A stretch of 64,000 nt of DNA from the NCBI RefSeq assembly GCF_030013595.1, contig NZ_CP122768.1; one strand, 5' to 3'. This stretch comes from Escherichia coli. GTDB lineage: Bacteria; Pseudomonadota; Gammaproteobacteria; Enterobacterales; Enterobacteriaceae. Shown piece by piece: positions 2,879-63,623 of this stretch. Every line of letters begins with the position of its first letter. Position 1 is the stretch's first letter. The notes beneath the pieces were generated by a model. The model saw nothing but the letters and a program-made list of their open reading frames with translations, ran no database searches and was not told the origin of the DNA. A program made the translations under genes and the position numbers.

Positions 2879-3034
2879 AGATAGTCGAATGGTGGGGAAA
2901 AGTCACTCGAATTACGTATGAGATGCCGAATGCCACACTTTGCGTCTTATTTCTCCGACGTAAAGTTGTTTACGCAGCAAACGCGGAGTATGTCATCTGG
3001 GTTAAGAATTGAAATTGAGAGATGCCTGAATAGC

Positions 3035-54882: not shown

Positions 54883-55176
54883 ATGGCTGAACACAATATT
54901 ACGCCAGAAGTCATCATTTCCAAAACACAGCGCCGCTGTACCGTGGGTTATCTGCCCAACCGCAGCGACACGCCGGTGATCAAAATCAGCGCCAAATGGC
55001 TGAGAGAAGCGGGATTTGAGATCGGCACTGGCGTTACCGTGAAGATCTCGGAAGGTTGCCTGATCCTGCTTGCGGATAACAACGAAGTACAGGAACTGCG
55101 CAGGGAACTGTATCAGGTTAAACAGGCTGTTAAGGGGATGCGTGACGGGATGTTTAGTGTGCTGAACGAGAGTTAA
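54883..55176 (+). CDS. SymE-family (SOS-induced type I toxin-like, AbrB/SpoVT fold) protein
   Basis: 97 aa; RRCTVGY...PVIKISAKWLREAGFEIGTGVTVKISEGCLIL aligns with K-12 SymE (RHVTVGY...[32 protein letters not shown]). Confidence 0.75.
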   Translation: MAEHNITPEVIISKTQRRCTVGYLPNRSDTPVIKISAKWLREAGFEIGTGVTVKISEGCLILLADNNEVQELRRELYQVKQAVKGMRDGMFSVLNES

Positions 55177-55686: not shown

Positions 55687-58600
55687 TCAGTACCTCCCGT
55701 TAGGAACAGAAAATCCAGGCAAACGCCTTAGATTTTCCCACGATTCAGGGAAGTGAGTTAAGATCACTGGTGTTTTCCCTATCTGACTTGTTGCAGTAAA
55801 CAAACCTGTTTCAGGATCATAATAGCCTACTCTAGGTTTATTCGTATACCTATCTCTATAAGTAAATTTCCTGCCATTTTGTATCGTGGTTCTTGCACTA
55901 ATATCATATTCTTTTACTGAATTTGCACCGACTTGTGAGCCATGTTTTTCAAAGTGATCTCTTAGGCCCGGCCCATCAACATTTTGTCGTGCTTTATTCC
56001 ATTTTGCATTTTTAGCCGTACCACAAAATAACCCAAGCGGATCGATCCAGCTTAACGGATTTGGCACATAAGCATAGAGGTTCAGCCCACCGTTTAATCC
56101 TATCGGGTCCGTTACCATGAACCGCCCGACATCCGGATCATAGTACCTGTGCAGATTGTAATGCAGCCCCGTTTCCCTGTCGAGGTACTGTCCCTGGTAG
56201 CGCAGGTTCTGCTCCACCCCGCCGTGGTCCTTCTCCTGTATCGTGTTACCCCAGACCTGATACCCCGTCTCCCACACGATTTTCCCGTCGCTGTCCGTCA
56301 TCTCTTCCGGCGCGCCGTTCACATCCGTGTGAAAATACAGTATCCGGTTCGGGCCCTCTTTGCCCGCCTTATCCACCCGCGCCAGCGGTTCATAACTCCC
56401 CGGGTCCCTGTAGATGTACAGGCTGTCTGTTCCCTCCGGCCTGCTCTCCTGCGCCAGCCGCATTCCGTCCCATAAAAATTTTGTCCGGTTGTACGGTTTA
56501 CCGTCAGGACTGATGTGCTGTTTTTCCGTCCGCCTCCCCAGCGCATCGTACACATACCGGTACGTCCCCCGCGCTGTCGTCACTTCCACCATCCGGTGTT
56601 CCGCATCATAACGGTAACTCTGCGTGCCGCTCCGCCCCTCCTTTTCCACCGCACGGCCAAATTCGTCGTAACGGTAGTGCACACCACGGTAAGACATCAG
56701 CCGGTTGAACGGCACCACGCTGTTTTCTGCCGTGGCCCTTTCCCCCGCGCGCCGCGCCAGCAGGTTTCCCGCCGCGTCGTACTGCCAGCTCGCCAGATAC
56801 CCCTCATCCTCCGAGCGGCACGCCGTGATGCGCCCCGTGGGGTCGTAGAAGTAATCCGTTTCCCCCCGCCGGCTGTGCCGCGTCTTCAGCAGTTCATCCT
56901 CGCCACTGTAGCTGTACTGCCGGTCCGTGAACGTCTCCGGTACCCCCCCGCGCATCCCGCTGTATGTCTCCCTGCGCTTCAGCCGCCCGCCGGGGTCGTA
57001 AAGCTGCCGCGTGCTCAGTCGCCCCTGGCTTCTGAGCACTTCACGGTGCAGGGCGTCACGTGTGAACTCGCTGATGACCTCCCGGTCCAGATTTATCTGC
57101 TGGAGATGGCCGCTGCCGTAGTACAGATGACGCTGCGTTCTGCCGTCCGGAAAGGTGGTGGCTGTCCGGTTGCTGAGTTCATCGTACTGATGGGTCAGGA
57201 CGCCCTGCGCCGTCTCCTCAGTCAGCATCCGCCCCAGTCTGTCGTAACTGAAGCGGATAATCTCCGGTGCGTCTGTTTCCCCGGCATCCGACCGTCGGCG
57301 GCGGATTTCCAGTAGCTGGTCTGCCGCATCATGGACGTATTCCGTACGGCTATCGGCTGTCTCCTTTGCCGTAAGCCGGCCCGCCGCATCACGTGCCAGC
57401 CGATGGCGGATTTCACCGCCCCGGTCCCCGGTGAACACCACTTCCGTGACCGCGTTCAGCGCGTTGTAGCGGTACGTCTGGCGGCAGCCGTCCGGATTTA
57501 TCTGCTCCGCCAGACGGTCCAGCACATCATGGCGGAACCGGTAGCTTTCTCCGTTCTCGTTTGTCAGCGTGACCAGACGCCCGTAAGCATCGTACCCGAA
57601 TGCCGTCCTGCGCCCCGTCGCGTCCGTCCGGCTGCGCACCCGGCCCTGCCCGTCCCGCTGCCAGCGCGTTATCCTCCCCATCGGGCTGGTGTACTTCACC
57701 AGCCTGCCCGCCGCGTCCGACTGGTAATTCACCGTGCGGCCGTCCGCCAGTATCACCTCCGTCAGGTGGCCGCTGTCGTCATACCCGTAGCGCGTGCTGT
57801 GGCTCTGCGCGTCTGTCATCCGTATCAGCCGCGTGCGTTCGTCGTAGAACCAGGCCGTCTGCGAGCCGGAACAGTCCGTGTGCCGCATGAGCTGCCCGTC
57901 TTCGTTCCACTGAAGGTATTTATTCCCCCCGCGCGCATCGGTTATCTGCACCACCTGGCCGTGGCGGTCATACTGATACCGGGTGTTCTGCTGCAGCGGG
58001 TCGGTCACCGCAAGAAGATTGCCGCGTTCATCGTACTCACAGCACCAGCTGTTCCCCGCCGCGTCCACCTCCGTTTCCGGCTGGTGCCACACCGGGTGCC
58101 ACTGTGTCTGTGCCACCCGCCCCAGCGGGTCGTGCGTCTCCGTGATATGCCCCTGCCGGTCATACACATAGCGCCATTTGCCGCCCTGCGCATCGGTCAT
58201 TCCCAGTAACAGCCGTTCTTCGTCGCTCCAGCGGAACGTCGTCACCTGCCCGGCTTCGTCCTGGTACGCCGTCACCTGGTTCTGCGCGTCCCACTGATGA
58301 TAACGCGTGCGCCCCAGCCCGTCCGTCACGCACAGCCTGCGTGACGCCAGGCTCCACGCCAGCCGGTACTGTTCACCGCTGTCCGTGTGGTGCCCCGTCA
58401 CCCGCCACGCTGCGTCATCCGGGCCTTCATACCAGCCCCACTGGTAATAATACCCTTCGCCGCCCGGCTGGCGGTGCAGGGTCATGCAGTGGTTTTCGTC
58501 GTAAGCAAACTCGCGCAGCAGGTGTCCCGTGCTGTCGTACACGCCGTTCAGGTCGCCGGCCTCGTCATAGCGGTAACGACGCAGCAGTAAAGGAGCCGTC

Positions 58601-60339
58601 TCAGGGAAATGCTGATAAATCTGTGTCACCCGCCGGGGATGCGCCGCCAGTTCATAATGCAGACGGATGCACGGACGCTGCTGTTCACCGCTGATTTGCG
58701 TGATGCGCCCCAGCTCGTCGTAGTACAGATTCAGACAGTTGCTGTTGCGGTCGCCCAGCATTTTCAGCCGCTGGCGCTGCGGGTGATGCGGGTCGGCCTC
58801 AAACAGAAAAAACTGCCCGTCATCGCTGCTGATAAGCCAGTGCCCCTGCTCACCCCGCCTTACCGCCAGTCCTTCGCCGGGGCTGTAAAACCCGCTCCCC
58901 GGCAGCACGGCCTCCATATCCAGGCGTCGTCCCATGCCCGACACAAAGGTCATACAGTTTTCGTCAGCAGTACCCGGCGTGCGCTCGAGGCTGACTTCAT
59001 ACATCACGCTCCAGCCCTGCCCGAACATCCCTTCCGTGCGGTCGTCACGACTGCTGTACACGCGCTGCCAGTCCAGCGGAAAGTGGCCCGGCAGACTGAA
59101 ATCGAAGTCATCGTCATCCGCCAGATATTTGGCTCCGGTGGCGGCATTGACCGGATGCGGAAGGGCACTGATGGCCTTCTGCGTCATCACCCCCATCCCG
59201 ACACTGGCAGCAAAACAGGCGATTTTAGAAAGCATTTTGCCCGGGCGAAGAAACATCAGCGCCACAGTTGCCACCAGGGTTATCTGCGACCTGCCGCTTC
59301 TGATATCCCTGACCACCAGTAACGGACCGCCAATGCGGACATCCGGTGACACAAACGCCCCGTTCCCCGGCTCATTCACCACCCAGGCCTCGCAGGTGCA
59401 GCGTGCCCCGCTGCGTGCCGCCGGCTGGCTGTTGATACGCACATCCCGCGCGCCTTCCGCGATATATTCCGCTGCGGGCGGTTCATCATCGCCTTTGAAC
59501 AGATTACTGATGCTGCCAATAACCGCATTCACTCCCTGAAAGGCGGTTTCCAGCATACCGCCCGGACTCAGCAGGTTAAGGGCCGTTCCCAGAGGGTCAT
59601 CCAGAAAGGCGGCTTTTTTTTGTGCGAGAAACTGCGTCAGTGAGGAGGGATGTTTATGGCAGTCGATTTTATCGTCAGGGGTCGGGGTGGAGCCCGGGGC
59701 CGCACTGGCCACGGTGGGCTGCCATAGTTCCGACACAAAATGTGTCACGCCATCCACCATTTCAGAACGCCCTTCTTCCGTACTGAGCTGGTCATGCAGC
59801 GCCCGGGACATCAGCACAGGCCCTGTCACCGGGTTAACCGCCAGGGCTATGGCCCCCGCCATTTCCAGATATTCCCCGGCCACATCCCGGAACGTTCTGG
59901 CGTCCTCCTGACGCTGCGCTTCTTCCTGTTCCGCCTTCGCCTGTGCCTCCTGCGCCTCAATGTCCTGCCGCGATGCCGCAGTCGCCGCTGCCCGCGCGGC
60001 AGGTTTGCTGTTGATCCATGTGTCGCCAGAGCCGGTGAGGATGTAACCTTCAATCTGAGGCGGGAAAAGCCAGTTCGCCAGTTGCTCACTTTCCCTACTG
60101 ATTCGGTCATTCCAGCCCTGATACGACATAAATACCGCTGTTGCTATACCGATCGCTAAAATGGTTGAGCAGCCCAGCGTTGCCACTTCAACTCCGCCCA
60201 GCGCCGCCATGGTTCCGACAACCAGAACATCCACCAGGGCTGTGGCGGCAACCTCTACAACTGCCCCCAGCACATCTGCCATAAACGACGTATGCAGCAG
60301 GGCATCACCCTGCCTTGCCGCCCAGAATGCCTCTTCCAT
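55687..60339 (-). CDS. Rhs-family polymorphic toxin: prePAAR motif, TM segments, split PAAR, RHS/YD-repeat shell, C-terminal toxin domain
   Basis: 1550 aa; [10 protein letters not shown] prePAAR motif at residues 7-16; PAAR signatures; [9 protein letters not shown] T6SS-effector N-domain motif; many YD repeats; core ends [27 protein letters not shown] followed by a 113-aa AT-rich tip; positionally equivalent to K-12 rhsC. Confidence 0.9.
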   Translation of the reverse strand: [1550 protein letters not shown]

Positions 60340-60357
60340 GTCCCGTTCCCTGTGTGA

Positions 60358-60567
60358 TTAATTCGTCCCGGCTTCCTGCCGCATCCTGAAGCGCAGATTC
60401 TTTTTAATTTCAGCCCAGCGCGTCATATCTGCCGGGGTCAGCGGTGTGGTTCTGGCGTAGGTGAAGGCCATCATGACCCGTTCACCCGGCAATACAAATG
60501 CCACCTGACACTGGTACACCTGCTCGTTACCCCGGAGAAACTGGCTCTGTATTTGCAAACCGCCTCA
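60358..60567 (-). pseudogene. truncated Eag/DUF1795-like T6SS effector chaperone remnant (C-terminal about 68 codons only)
   Basis: reading frame open only from an in-frame TGA at 60565-60567; no ATG (track uses TTG); C-terminal pattern resembles EagT6-type chaperones; ends 18 bp before the Rhs start. Confidence 0.4.
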
Positions 60568-61341
60568 TAGAGATAATATTCCGTCATAATAGAAGTCGTC
60601 CTTTTTAATAAATGAATTATTTATTGACAGGTTCTGTTTTTTAATCATGAATGTAATGTCTATCACCGCTTTACAGCACTCTTTATCTTTCAAGCCGTAA
60701 TCACTAATAACATTAAGCAATTACCCATATTTACAATGACCGGAACTGATATGCCGTTATGTATTTAACAATCCCAACATATTCACCATACCAATAAAAT
60801 CACGAGTAACAAACACGCTACCGCCTCCATATAAAAAATGGACAGCTTATAAAATTGCATCTTGCATAGAAAGGGCTGAGATATCGAGTGTATTTTAATT
60901 ATCAACTATAAATGTTGAATATTTTCATTAACAGAAACACATCTTATCCCATTAGATATGTTAACAATCAATTACTCTTAACATATCACTAAAGTATATA
61001 TTACTCTCTTTACTATCTACTTTTATTGCGGTAGCGATACAAATAGCAAAATTCGGAATTTATTTAGATGCAGGAATTAGAAAAAGGGATGGCGGCTTTC
61101 TCACCTTACCCTGAAGTTTCAGGAAAGTGTGTAAGGAAGGATGCAACCTAACTGGAGATTTCTGAGGATCTAGTTGCTTAGAGCGACAATGAAGGTGAAC
61201 GCATCCAGAGTAGTCCTATGAAAGGATACTATTGAAAATTGATGCTAAAACAGTGATTAAATGAACAACACCATGGAACCCGTTGATTCAAAACGCCTAA
61301 ACCAGCCCCCTGATACGAGGCTGGCTTAAACGCGCAGGCAA

Positions 61342-61548
61342 TCAGTAAAAATCACCAGTTGCCTTTTCGGCCTGATCCATCCACACCGGTTTCTCGCTGG
61401 TTTTCGACCAGACGCGGTGCAGGTAGCTGTAAAAGCGGGCGCGGTCTTTCCAGAAAAGCATGAAAGGCAGCGCCAGAACGCCCGCTGCAACCGCATAAGT
61501 ACGGCGTATAAAGATAAGCCATGCAGGATATTCTCTGTAGAGTTCCAT
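61342..61548 (-). CDS. ybfA: DUF2517 small protein YbfA
   Basis: 68 aa, matches remembered YbfA; sits between the rhs locus and kdp as in K-12. Confidence 0.85.
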
Positions 61549-61761
61549 ACTTTTCTCCCCCTTTTGTATCTATCCGGTGAATGGCACCGGAAAAATGAAT
61601 TTGTTTATCTGATGAAAATAGTACCGCCTTTTGTGTAATTTTACTACTCATCCGACCACTTATTTTTGCTTATTGATGGTTTATTTACATTCACACTGTA
61701 ATTAAGTTACACAAAAGTTAAATTAATACTAACCATCAGTTAAATCATGGCTTTTGCCATT

Positions 61762-61778
61762 TTTATACTTTTTTTACA
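61762..61778 (+). promoter_or_regulatory. KdpE operator (TTTATA-N5-TTTACA direct repeats) in the kdpFABC promoter
   Basis: CATTTTTATACTTTTTTTACACCCC about 85 bp upstream of kdpF; KdpE site recalled from the literature. Confidence 0.55.
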
Positions 61779-61860
61779 CCCCGCCCGCAGATTTTTGCGA
61801 AATCTTTGCAGCCAGAATTCTACTCTTCCGGTATCACTTTTAGGCCACTGGAGGTGCACT

Positions 61861-61950
61861 GTGAGTGCAGGCGTGATAGCCGGCGTGTTGCTGGTGTTTT
61901 TATTACTGGGTTATCTGGTTTATGCCCTGATCAATGCGGAGGCGTTCTGA
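61861..61950 (+). CDS. kdpF: K+-transporting ATPase subunit F (29 aa, GTG start)
   Basis: hand-translated [29 protein letters not shown]; stop overlaps the kdpA ATG (TGATG). Confidence 0.85.
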
Positions 61951-63623
61951 TGGCTGCGCAAGGGTTCTTACTGATTGCCACGTTTTTACTGGTGTTAATG
62001 GTGCTGGCGCGTCCTTTAGGCAGCGGGCTGGCGCGGCTGATTAACGACATACCTCTTCCCGGTACAGCGGGCGTTGAACGTATACTCTTTCGTTTACCTG
62101 GCGTCTCTGACAGTGAGATGAACTGGAAGCAGTATCTCTCTGCCATTCTCGGCCTGAACATGCTGGGGCTGGCGGTGCTGTTTTTTATGTTGCTCGGTCA
62201 GCACTATCTGCCGCTTAATCCACAGCAGTTGCCAGGGCTGTCGTGGGATCTGGCGCTGAATACCGCCGTCAGCTTTGTCACCAATACCAACTGGCAATCT
62301 TATAGCGGTGAAACCACGTTGAGCTATTTCAGCCAGATGGCGGGCTTAACGGTACAAAACTTTCTTTCTGCCGCCAGCGGGATTGCGGTGATTTTTGCCC
62401 TCATTCGTGCGTTTACCCGCCAGAGCATGAGCACACTCGGGAATGTCTGGGTCGATCTGTTACGTATCACGTTATGGGTGCTAGTCCCTGTGGCGTTGTT
62501 GATCGCACTGTTTTTTATTCAACAAGGTGCACTGCAAAACTTTCTGCCCTATCAGGCGGTGAATACCGTTGAAGGAGCGAAACAGCTGTTACCCATGGGT
62601 CCGGTGGCTTCTCAGGAAGCGATAAAGATGCTCGGCACTAACGGCGGTGGCTTCTTTAATGCCAACTCGTCGCATCCGTTTGAAAACCCAACCGCACTGA
62701 CCAACTTCGTGCAGATGCTGGCGATCTTCTTGATCCCAACGGCACTGTGCTTTGCCTTTGGCGAAGTGGCGGGCGATCGCCGTCAGGGGCGCATGTTGCT
62801 GTGGGCGATGTCAGTGATTTTTGTCATCTGCGTAGGCGTGGTGATGTGGGCAGAAGTTCAGGGTAATCCTCATCTGCTGGCGCTGGGTGCGGACAGCAGC
62901 ATCAATATGGAAGGTAAAGAGAGCCGTTTCGGCGTGCTGGTCAGTAGCCTGTTTGCGGTCGTGACTACGGCGGCTTCCTGTGGCGCGGTGATTGCGATGC
63001 ATGATTCGTTTACCGCTCTCGGTGGCATGGTGCCGATGTGGCTGATGCAAATTGGTGAAGTGGTATTCGGCGGTGTCGGTTCTGGTCTTTACGGCATGAT
63101 GCTGTTTGTTCTGCTGGCGGTGTTTATTGCCGGGCTGATGATTGGTCGTACACCGGAATATCTGGGTAAAAAAATCGACGTACGTGAGATGAAACTGACC
63201 GCGCTGGCGATTCTGGTCACCCCGACGCTGGTGCTGATGGGCGCGGCGCTGGCGATGATGACCGACGCCGGACGTAGCGCCATGCTCAACCCTGGCCCGC
63301 ATGGTTTTAGCGAAATGCTGTACGCCGTGTCGTCCGCCGCTAACAACAACGGCAGCGCCTTTGCCGGATTAAGCACCAACTCTCCATTCTGGAACTGTTT
63401 GCTGGCGTTCTGCATGTTTGTCGGTCGCTTCGGGGTAATTATCCCGGTGATGGCAATTGCCGGTTCGTTGGTGAGTAAAAAGAGCCAACCCGCCAGCTCC
63501 GGCACGCTGCCAACGCACGGCCCGCTGTTTGTTGGCCTGTTAATCGGCACCGTGTTGCTGGTTGGCGCACTGACCTTTATCCCTGCCCTGGCGCTTGGTC
63601 CGGTGGCGGAATATCTCTCCTGA
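61950..63623 (+). CDS. kdpA: K+-transporting ATPase subunit A
   Basis: 557 aa from [16 protein letters not shown]; the track ORF is extended upstream in frame. Confidence 0.96.

Follow-up and report, generated by a model that had tools for sequence, protein, structure and literature searches.

What is the AT-rich DNA that separates an rhs toxin gene from the core gene ybfA in this Escherichia coli chromosome, and how did it come to lie there? A preliminary description of the 64,000-nucleotide stretch analysed here (the window) had marked out positions 60568–61341 as very poor in GC and free of ORFs, and had read them as a likely deletion or replacement scar, probably bound by H-NS. The left end of that interval falls within the remnant of an eag gene, and hence the true intergenic interval between eag and ybfA begins at 60588. 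As thus defined, the interval 60588–61341 spans 754 bp and is non-coding. We consider it very probable that this DNA is the native upstream spacer of a PAAR-Rhs effector island, which a minority of E. coli carry between ybfA and ybgA, the site that holds rhsC in K-12. The reading is built on the observed anatomy, homologies, deletion, hairpin and distribution of the interval and its flanks.

The spacer between ybfA and eag

The low GC content of the region is genuine. It amounts to 35.3% over 60588–61341 and 30.3% over 60588–61079, versus 50.9% for the whole window, and the AT-rich stretch ranks third-lowest in GC among the 500-bp stretches of the 64 kb. GC falls sharply at ~60560, and 61080–61290 is richer than the rest of the spacer (41.7%). 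As had been described, 60568–61341 holds no ORF of at least 60 aa: the longest fully contained ORF has 40 aa, and a 51-aa ORF crosses the left edge. An ORF of at least 60 aa is also missing in 63% of composition-matched shuffles of the region; its absence is unremarkable and no more than expected by chance. A repeat search of the region found no repeats, and the identical RefSeq genome, E. coli HCP5S3_I2, carries no annotation between the eag pseudogene and ybfA.

On the right the interval is bounded by ybfA (61342–61548, minus strand; 68 aa, DUF2517, Pfam E = 4e-33), a conserved core gene found in 5,424 of 5,426 genomes, with kdpF and kdpA following on the plus strand from 61861. On the left lie the eag pseudogene and the gene for the 1550-aa Rhs toxin (55687–60339, minus strand). 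Beyond rhs, the island ends with a small ORF of the immunity type and a gene of the SymE family, after which come ybgA and phrB. The SymE-family type I toxin ORF (54883–55176, plus strand, 97 aa), so annotated in the identical RefSeq genome, sits between the Rhs immunity gene and ybgA.

Most of the interval (60670–61288) is an AT-rich non-coding spacer that is specific to the island and occurs at this locus only. We found it in 212 of 5,426 complete E. coli genomes (~4%), full-length in 145 of them, and in its carriers it is always chromosomal and adjoins ybfA. The phage collection yielded no match to the spacer, and the lone match in the plasmid collection was a mislabelled chromosome. Two 22-mers shared unchanged by the E. 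coli variants had no exact match in GTDB r220, searched with one genome per species. The comparison with K-12, which the preliminary description had named as a check, revealed no collinearity of the region with the K-12 sequence between ybfA and rhsC: the window matches K-12 only from 61338 rightwards, and the same is true of most other E. coli. The K-12 RhsC element, with its H-rpt (ISAs1/ISEc1), occupies the same chromosomal site by ybfA, and ISEc1 copies are present at the locus in some strains. However, the rhs lineage differs; K-12 rhsC has no eag and follows an unrelated intergenic region of 242 bp.

The same DNA is present where eag is intact. In L006 and L008, ybfA, a spacer of 783–784 bp, eag and rhs stand in this order, and the spacers of intact-eag strains are 86–90% identical to that of the window. 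Sharing of the spacer by these strains argues that the AT-rich DNA is native to the island and not a replacement. In all likelihood it is the ordinary, native, non-coding upstream DNA of an orphan eag-rhs-immunity module. Its conservation is fairly even, typically with 60–90% invariant columns per 40-nt window, and dips to 30–40% at a 27-nt indel near 61260–61292. No sharply conserved block was found along the spacer variants; some runs of 16–32 nt are invariant across them.

ISEc1 (ISAs1 family, H-rpt) is inserted in the spacer at two different sites, in L002 and in L007. The two insertions are independent (L002 5710–7000, L007 5209–6500), one being flanked by a 10-bp target duplication, AAAATGGACA, and the other accompanied by a 99-bp adjacent deletion. 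H-rpt elements have long been known to associate with Rhs loci, and the ISEc1 insertions fit this association.

The eag-proximal edge of the interval bears on the origin of the module. Window positions 60565–60667 match positions 3001–3100 of L010, a T6SS island locus that carries a vgrG-eag junction, with 78.6% identity over 103 nt (blastn). By homology to this junction, 60588–60637 (minus strand) is a former vgrG-eag spacer that includes the eag Shine-Dalgarno sequence AAAAAGGAC. The adjoining 60638–60669 (minus strand) preserves the final ~10 codons of vgrG as a relic, recognized by blastn, alignment and translation of the L010 vgrG end. The relic reads AVIDITFMIK, the L010 VgrG ends LAIDVTFMNK*, and the stop codon has been lost in the window. 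Comparison with the vgrG locus by tblastx and blastn traced homology no further than ~100 nt upstream of eag; the remaining ~620 bp (60670–61288) have no match to vgrG. Because a vgrG-eag junction can be recognized upstream of eag, the orphan eag-rhs module derives from a vgrG-eag-rhs cluster, from which it was excised with a breakpoint ~10 codons before the vgrG stop.

Known vgrG-eag-rhs modules (EagR/Rhs in Serratia, SciW/Rhs1 in Salmonella, eagR-rhsF in EHEC) share with the window the order eag, prePAAR-PAAR-Rhs, immunity, as well as the vgrG-eag junction sequence just 5′ of eag. The window differs from them in having no vgrG save the ~10-codon relic and in the inactivation of its eag. Moreover, its module stands alone, flanked by the core genes ybfA and ybgA and preceded by ~620 bp of AT-rich DNA.

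One could expect from the vgrG relic that the whole spacer is fully decayed coding sequence, derived from vgrG or from other T6SS or island genes and functionless now. In addition to this ~30-nt remnant at the eag-proximal edge, the fairly uniform conservation without a sharply conserved block and the tolerance of both the ISEc1 insertions and the 99-bp deletion are consistent with such decay. However, the searches against the vgrG locus are blank past the first ~100 nt, long ORF remnants are absent from all variants, and vgrG or rhs coding DNA has a much higher GC content than the 30% of the spacer. We therefore consider complete decay of former genes unlikely, while noting that it is compatible with the spacer being native upstream DNA of the island, the two readings not being exclusive.

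The hairpin next to ybfA and the search for spacer genes

A CCAGCC/GGCTGG hairpin had been proposed just downstream of ybfA, as either the ybfA terminator or a small RNA. The hairpin is real. Its complementary hexamers lie at 61302–61326 and the structure extends to 61293–61333, forming a 17-bp stem with a 7-nt loop (–28.3 kcal/mol, z = –4.5; 0 of 200 shuffles as stable), which is the stable stem-loop expected of a Rho-independent terminator. It begins 8 nt past the ybfA stop on the ybfA sense (minus) strand, UUUUG (61292–61288) follows the stem, and the core is invariant in every variant compared. The tract after the stem is variable: UUUUG in the window, GGUUUUUUG in O157 TR01, and GUGUUCAAC followed by a second hairpin in other lineages. 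Hence the U-run is short in the window and is not kept in the sister lineages. A simple consensus terminator scan did not call the hairpin. Of the two proposals the terminator is the better one, considering the position, the fold and the counterparts in TR01 and K-12. The fold, position and invariant core of 61288–61333 (minus strand) make a Rho-independent terminator of ybfA the most likely identity of this element, and we set the island boundary there.

The corresponding position after ybfA in K-12 is taken by another, canonical terminator (AAAACCGCCAGCG-GAAA-CGCTGGCGGTTTTTT, z = –7.3). Both are coding-strand stem-loops that lie a few nucleotides after the stop and are followed by U's. The window element differs from that of K-12 in sequence, in its longer stem, whose 17 bp include G-U and A-U pairs, and in having four U's only, and in the sister lineages a second hairpin takes the place of the U-tract. 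This second hairpin is due to a 27-nt indel in L005, L006, L008, L009 and L002, located between the equivalents of window positions 61272 and 61273. The indel creates a perfect 13-bp hairpin, AACGTCTTCCATG-ATAATTAA-CATGGAAGACGTT, directly after the ybfA hairpin, and the tandem hairpins fold jointly at –49.8 kcal/mol (z = –7.9). The window and L004 precisely lack these 27 nt.

In O157:H7 TR01 (L011), where the neighbour is of the rhsC type, the window-type hairpin is fused to GGTTTTTTG, with a T6 run after the hairpin, and the sequence is collinear with K-12 from there on. Since the hairpin stands here beside an rhsC-type neighbour, it accompanies ybfA, not the island alone. The combination of a window-type hairpin with a K-12-type T-run and downstream sequence suggests a recombination breakpoint within the terminator. 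Comparison of L011 3990–4061 with window 61285–61345 reveals that the ybfA terminator exists as two alternative alleles in E. coli.

The segment 61080–61330 had been described as both GC-richer and structured. The first part of this statement holds for 61080–61290, but the second applies to the hairpin alone: without the terminal hairpin, 61080–61290 folds like its shuffles (z = –1.0 on the minus strand, –0.8 on the plus strand). We considered it improbable that a small RNA, or else a structured leader acting in cis, is encoded in the segment and ends at the hairpin or makes use of it. Several observations speak for such an RNA, namely the z-score of –2.7 obtained when 286 nt of the minus strand, hairpin included, are folded, the invariant 16–32-nt runs, and a locally conserved nested hairpin, CCTTAC..CCTGAAACTTCAGG..GTAAGG. 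However, a search of 59500–62500 against Rfam at a permissive threshold (E ≤ 1) returned only a spurious mir-498 match inside ybfA. The covariation term was unfavourable (RNAalifold on six variants, +0.52), with compensatory changes in 1 of 87 pairs. Thus, the segment displays neither a match to a curated family nor covariation or excess stability of the kind that would mark a small RNA. On the plus strand the hairpin is not followed by a U-tract, the promoter scan gave no site nearby, and indels of 10–27 nt distinguish the lineages within the segment. The small-RNA option is therefore not borne out.

A study of Shigella flexneri lists Ssr3, a predicted and RT-PCR-positive sRNA candidate, in the ybfA/kdpA intergenic region (PMC4782007). 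Ssr3 is ruled out as an RNA of the spacer by its place beyond ybfA, comparable to the ybfA-kdpF intergenic region of the window (61549–61860). Ssr1 of the same study adjoins a different Rhs gene, and ybfA is mentioned there for Ssr3 only (PMC4782007).

An even less probable reading is that the spacer encodes a small protein or a type I toxin. Several ORFs of 20–51 aa in the spacer, and the SymE-family toxin gene at the other end of the island, would be in line with it, but none of the small ORFs is intact across all seven variants, and Rfam families of antitoxin or toxin RNAs are absent.

The deletion in eag and its probable consequence for Rhs

The eag pseudogene (60358–60587, minus strand) derives from a chaperone gene of the DcrB/DUF1795 family, as recognized by alignment with the intact L006 eag, tblastn, Pfam and RefSeq. 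It retains its Shine-Dalgarno sequence, the ATG (60587–60585) and nine codons, MTEYYLYEA. Alignment with the reference intact eag of L006 (18SZHZ655Rt; 453 nt, 150 aa) revealed that 223 nt are absent after codon 9 and that the sequence resumes at residue 84 in another frame. Residues 84–150 align to 60561–60361 with 95.5% identity (tblastn). The truncated eag-like ORF at 60558–60358 matches positions 77–126 of the 127-position Pfam DcrB profile, and the in-frame match scores 25.3 bits versus a cut-off of 27.2; the full-length domain of an Eag chaperone gene is thus lacking. In BLAST comparisons with the intact alleles of L002, L006 and L007 the matching segments stop at 60557 and restart at 60565, placing the deletion junction at 60558–60564 to within a few bases. 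L004 and L005 have the identical junction, as do up to 104 of the 5,426 complete genomes.

In short, eag is a pseudogene, inactivated by a frameshifting internal deletion of 223 bp. In identical genomes RefSeq calls the remnant an incomplete DcrB-related pseudogene with a "missing N-terminus". This label misplaces the lesion: the start codon and nine codons are kept and the loss is internal, and we correct the annotation of the pseudogene in this sense. HCP5S3_I2 also holds another eag-like place elsewhere in its genome.

The scar of the preliminary description therefore exists, but it is the deletion within eag, where sequence of intact relatives is missing at a definable junction; the AT-rich DNA, found also beside intact eag, has no such junction and is itself no scar. 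Although the RefSeq label and the abrupt drop in GC at ~60560 could be taken to mean that unrelated AT-rich DNA was inserted in place of the 5′ part of eag, we give this reading next to no weight and regard it as refuted, because the ribosome-binding site, ATG and nine codons of eag are still there at 60561–60600, at the left end of the interval as first drawn, the 223-bp loss is internal, and L006 and L008 combine the same spacer with an intact gene.

The loss of eag matters for the adjacent toxin. The prePAAR motif is AARxxDxxxH, and prePAAR effectors co-occur with and bind Eag chaperones (PMC7773334). The Rhs protein contains AARQGDALLH at residues 7–16, a hydrophobic N-terminal stretch (the TM region being judged by eye from the sequence) and a PAAR motif. 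According to Pfam, the PAAR motif falls within the first 400 residues and the C-terminal core matches RHS, and the identical genome annotates the protein as "RHS repeat-associated core domain-containing protein". The features of an Eag-dependent prePAAR Rhs effector (AARxxDxxxH, N-terminal hydrophobic region, PAAR, Rhs core) are thus all present, and by its domain content we assign Rhs to the predicted type VI secretion effectors of the Eag-chaperone-dependent class. Since this class needs Eag and eag is frameshifted, export of Rhs is probably disabled: the loss of eag would prevent the loading of Rhs for secretion unless an Eag paralogue substitutes.

The 5′ kilobase of rhs (59340–60339) is ~90% identical to L004, and the adjacent eag remnant and spacer are 98.5–98.7% identical to it. 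The locus is a recombination mosaic.

Expression and possible silencing of the orphan module

Because the module has lost vgrG, eag and rhs must be driven from within the spacer, which presumably holds their promoter or promoters. A consensus scan of the spacer found no convincing or conserved sigma-70 promoter, and sigma-70-like sites in the region are fewer than in shuffles (one, weak). This lone minus-strand site (60644–60616) consists of TTAAAA and AATAAT, 17 nt apart. Neither its hexamers nor its spacing is conserved in L006 or L008, and its use as a promoter is conjectural.

The H-NS consensus motif is TCGATAAATT. With up to two mismatches it occurs twice in the interval versus a window mean of 1.1 per 754 bp, i.e. 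it is not enriched. T6SS/rhs islands are reported to be silenced by H-NS in Salmonella and EHEC (PMC7043789, PMC7216683). Like this silenced DNA (the SPI-6 T6SS/rhs island and the EHEC T6SS), the spacer is AT-rich (30% GC), strain-variable and located upstream of a T6SS effector operon; unlike it, the spacer would be a predicted target, in which the consensus motif is not enriched. Horizontally acquired, AT-rich DNA is a likely target of H-NS silencing. With an AT content well above the genome average (30.3% GC versus 50.9% for the window) and a presence in 4% of genomes, the spacer is a plausible candidate for such a target.

Overall, ybfA, eag and rhs, all transcribed from the minus strand, are organized as follows. 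The stem-loop and short U-run after the ybfA stop would end ybfA transcription and shield the island from read-through. The ~620 bp of AT-rich island DNA would supply the eag-rhs promoter, vgrG being lost, and, as a horizontally acquired spacer, might be silenced by H-NS. Next toward eag come the ~30-nt relic of the vgrG 3′ end, then the old vgrG-eag spacer with the ribosome-binding site, and then the eag start. A separate deletion of 223 bp has turned eag into a pseudogene, and the loading of Rhs for secretion would probably be lost without a paralogue.

The finding is an ordinary one, the intergenic spacer of a known kind of island, and its significance is slight beyond annotation hygiene. 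A more far-reaching alternative, which we regard as a long shot, would give the ~620-bp spacer a dedicated regulatory role in orphan eag-rhs islands, with the expression of a vgrG-less Rhs timed by an H-NS nucleation and insulator element, an unannotated transcript or a long leader. If so, the eag-deleted lineages with an intact Rhs (~100 genomes) could use Rhs intracellularly, in a toxin-antitoxin-like manner, rather than secrete it. If these lineages still use Rhs, this would have implications for the expression and delivery of orphan Rhs toxins.
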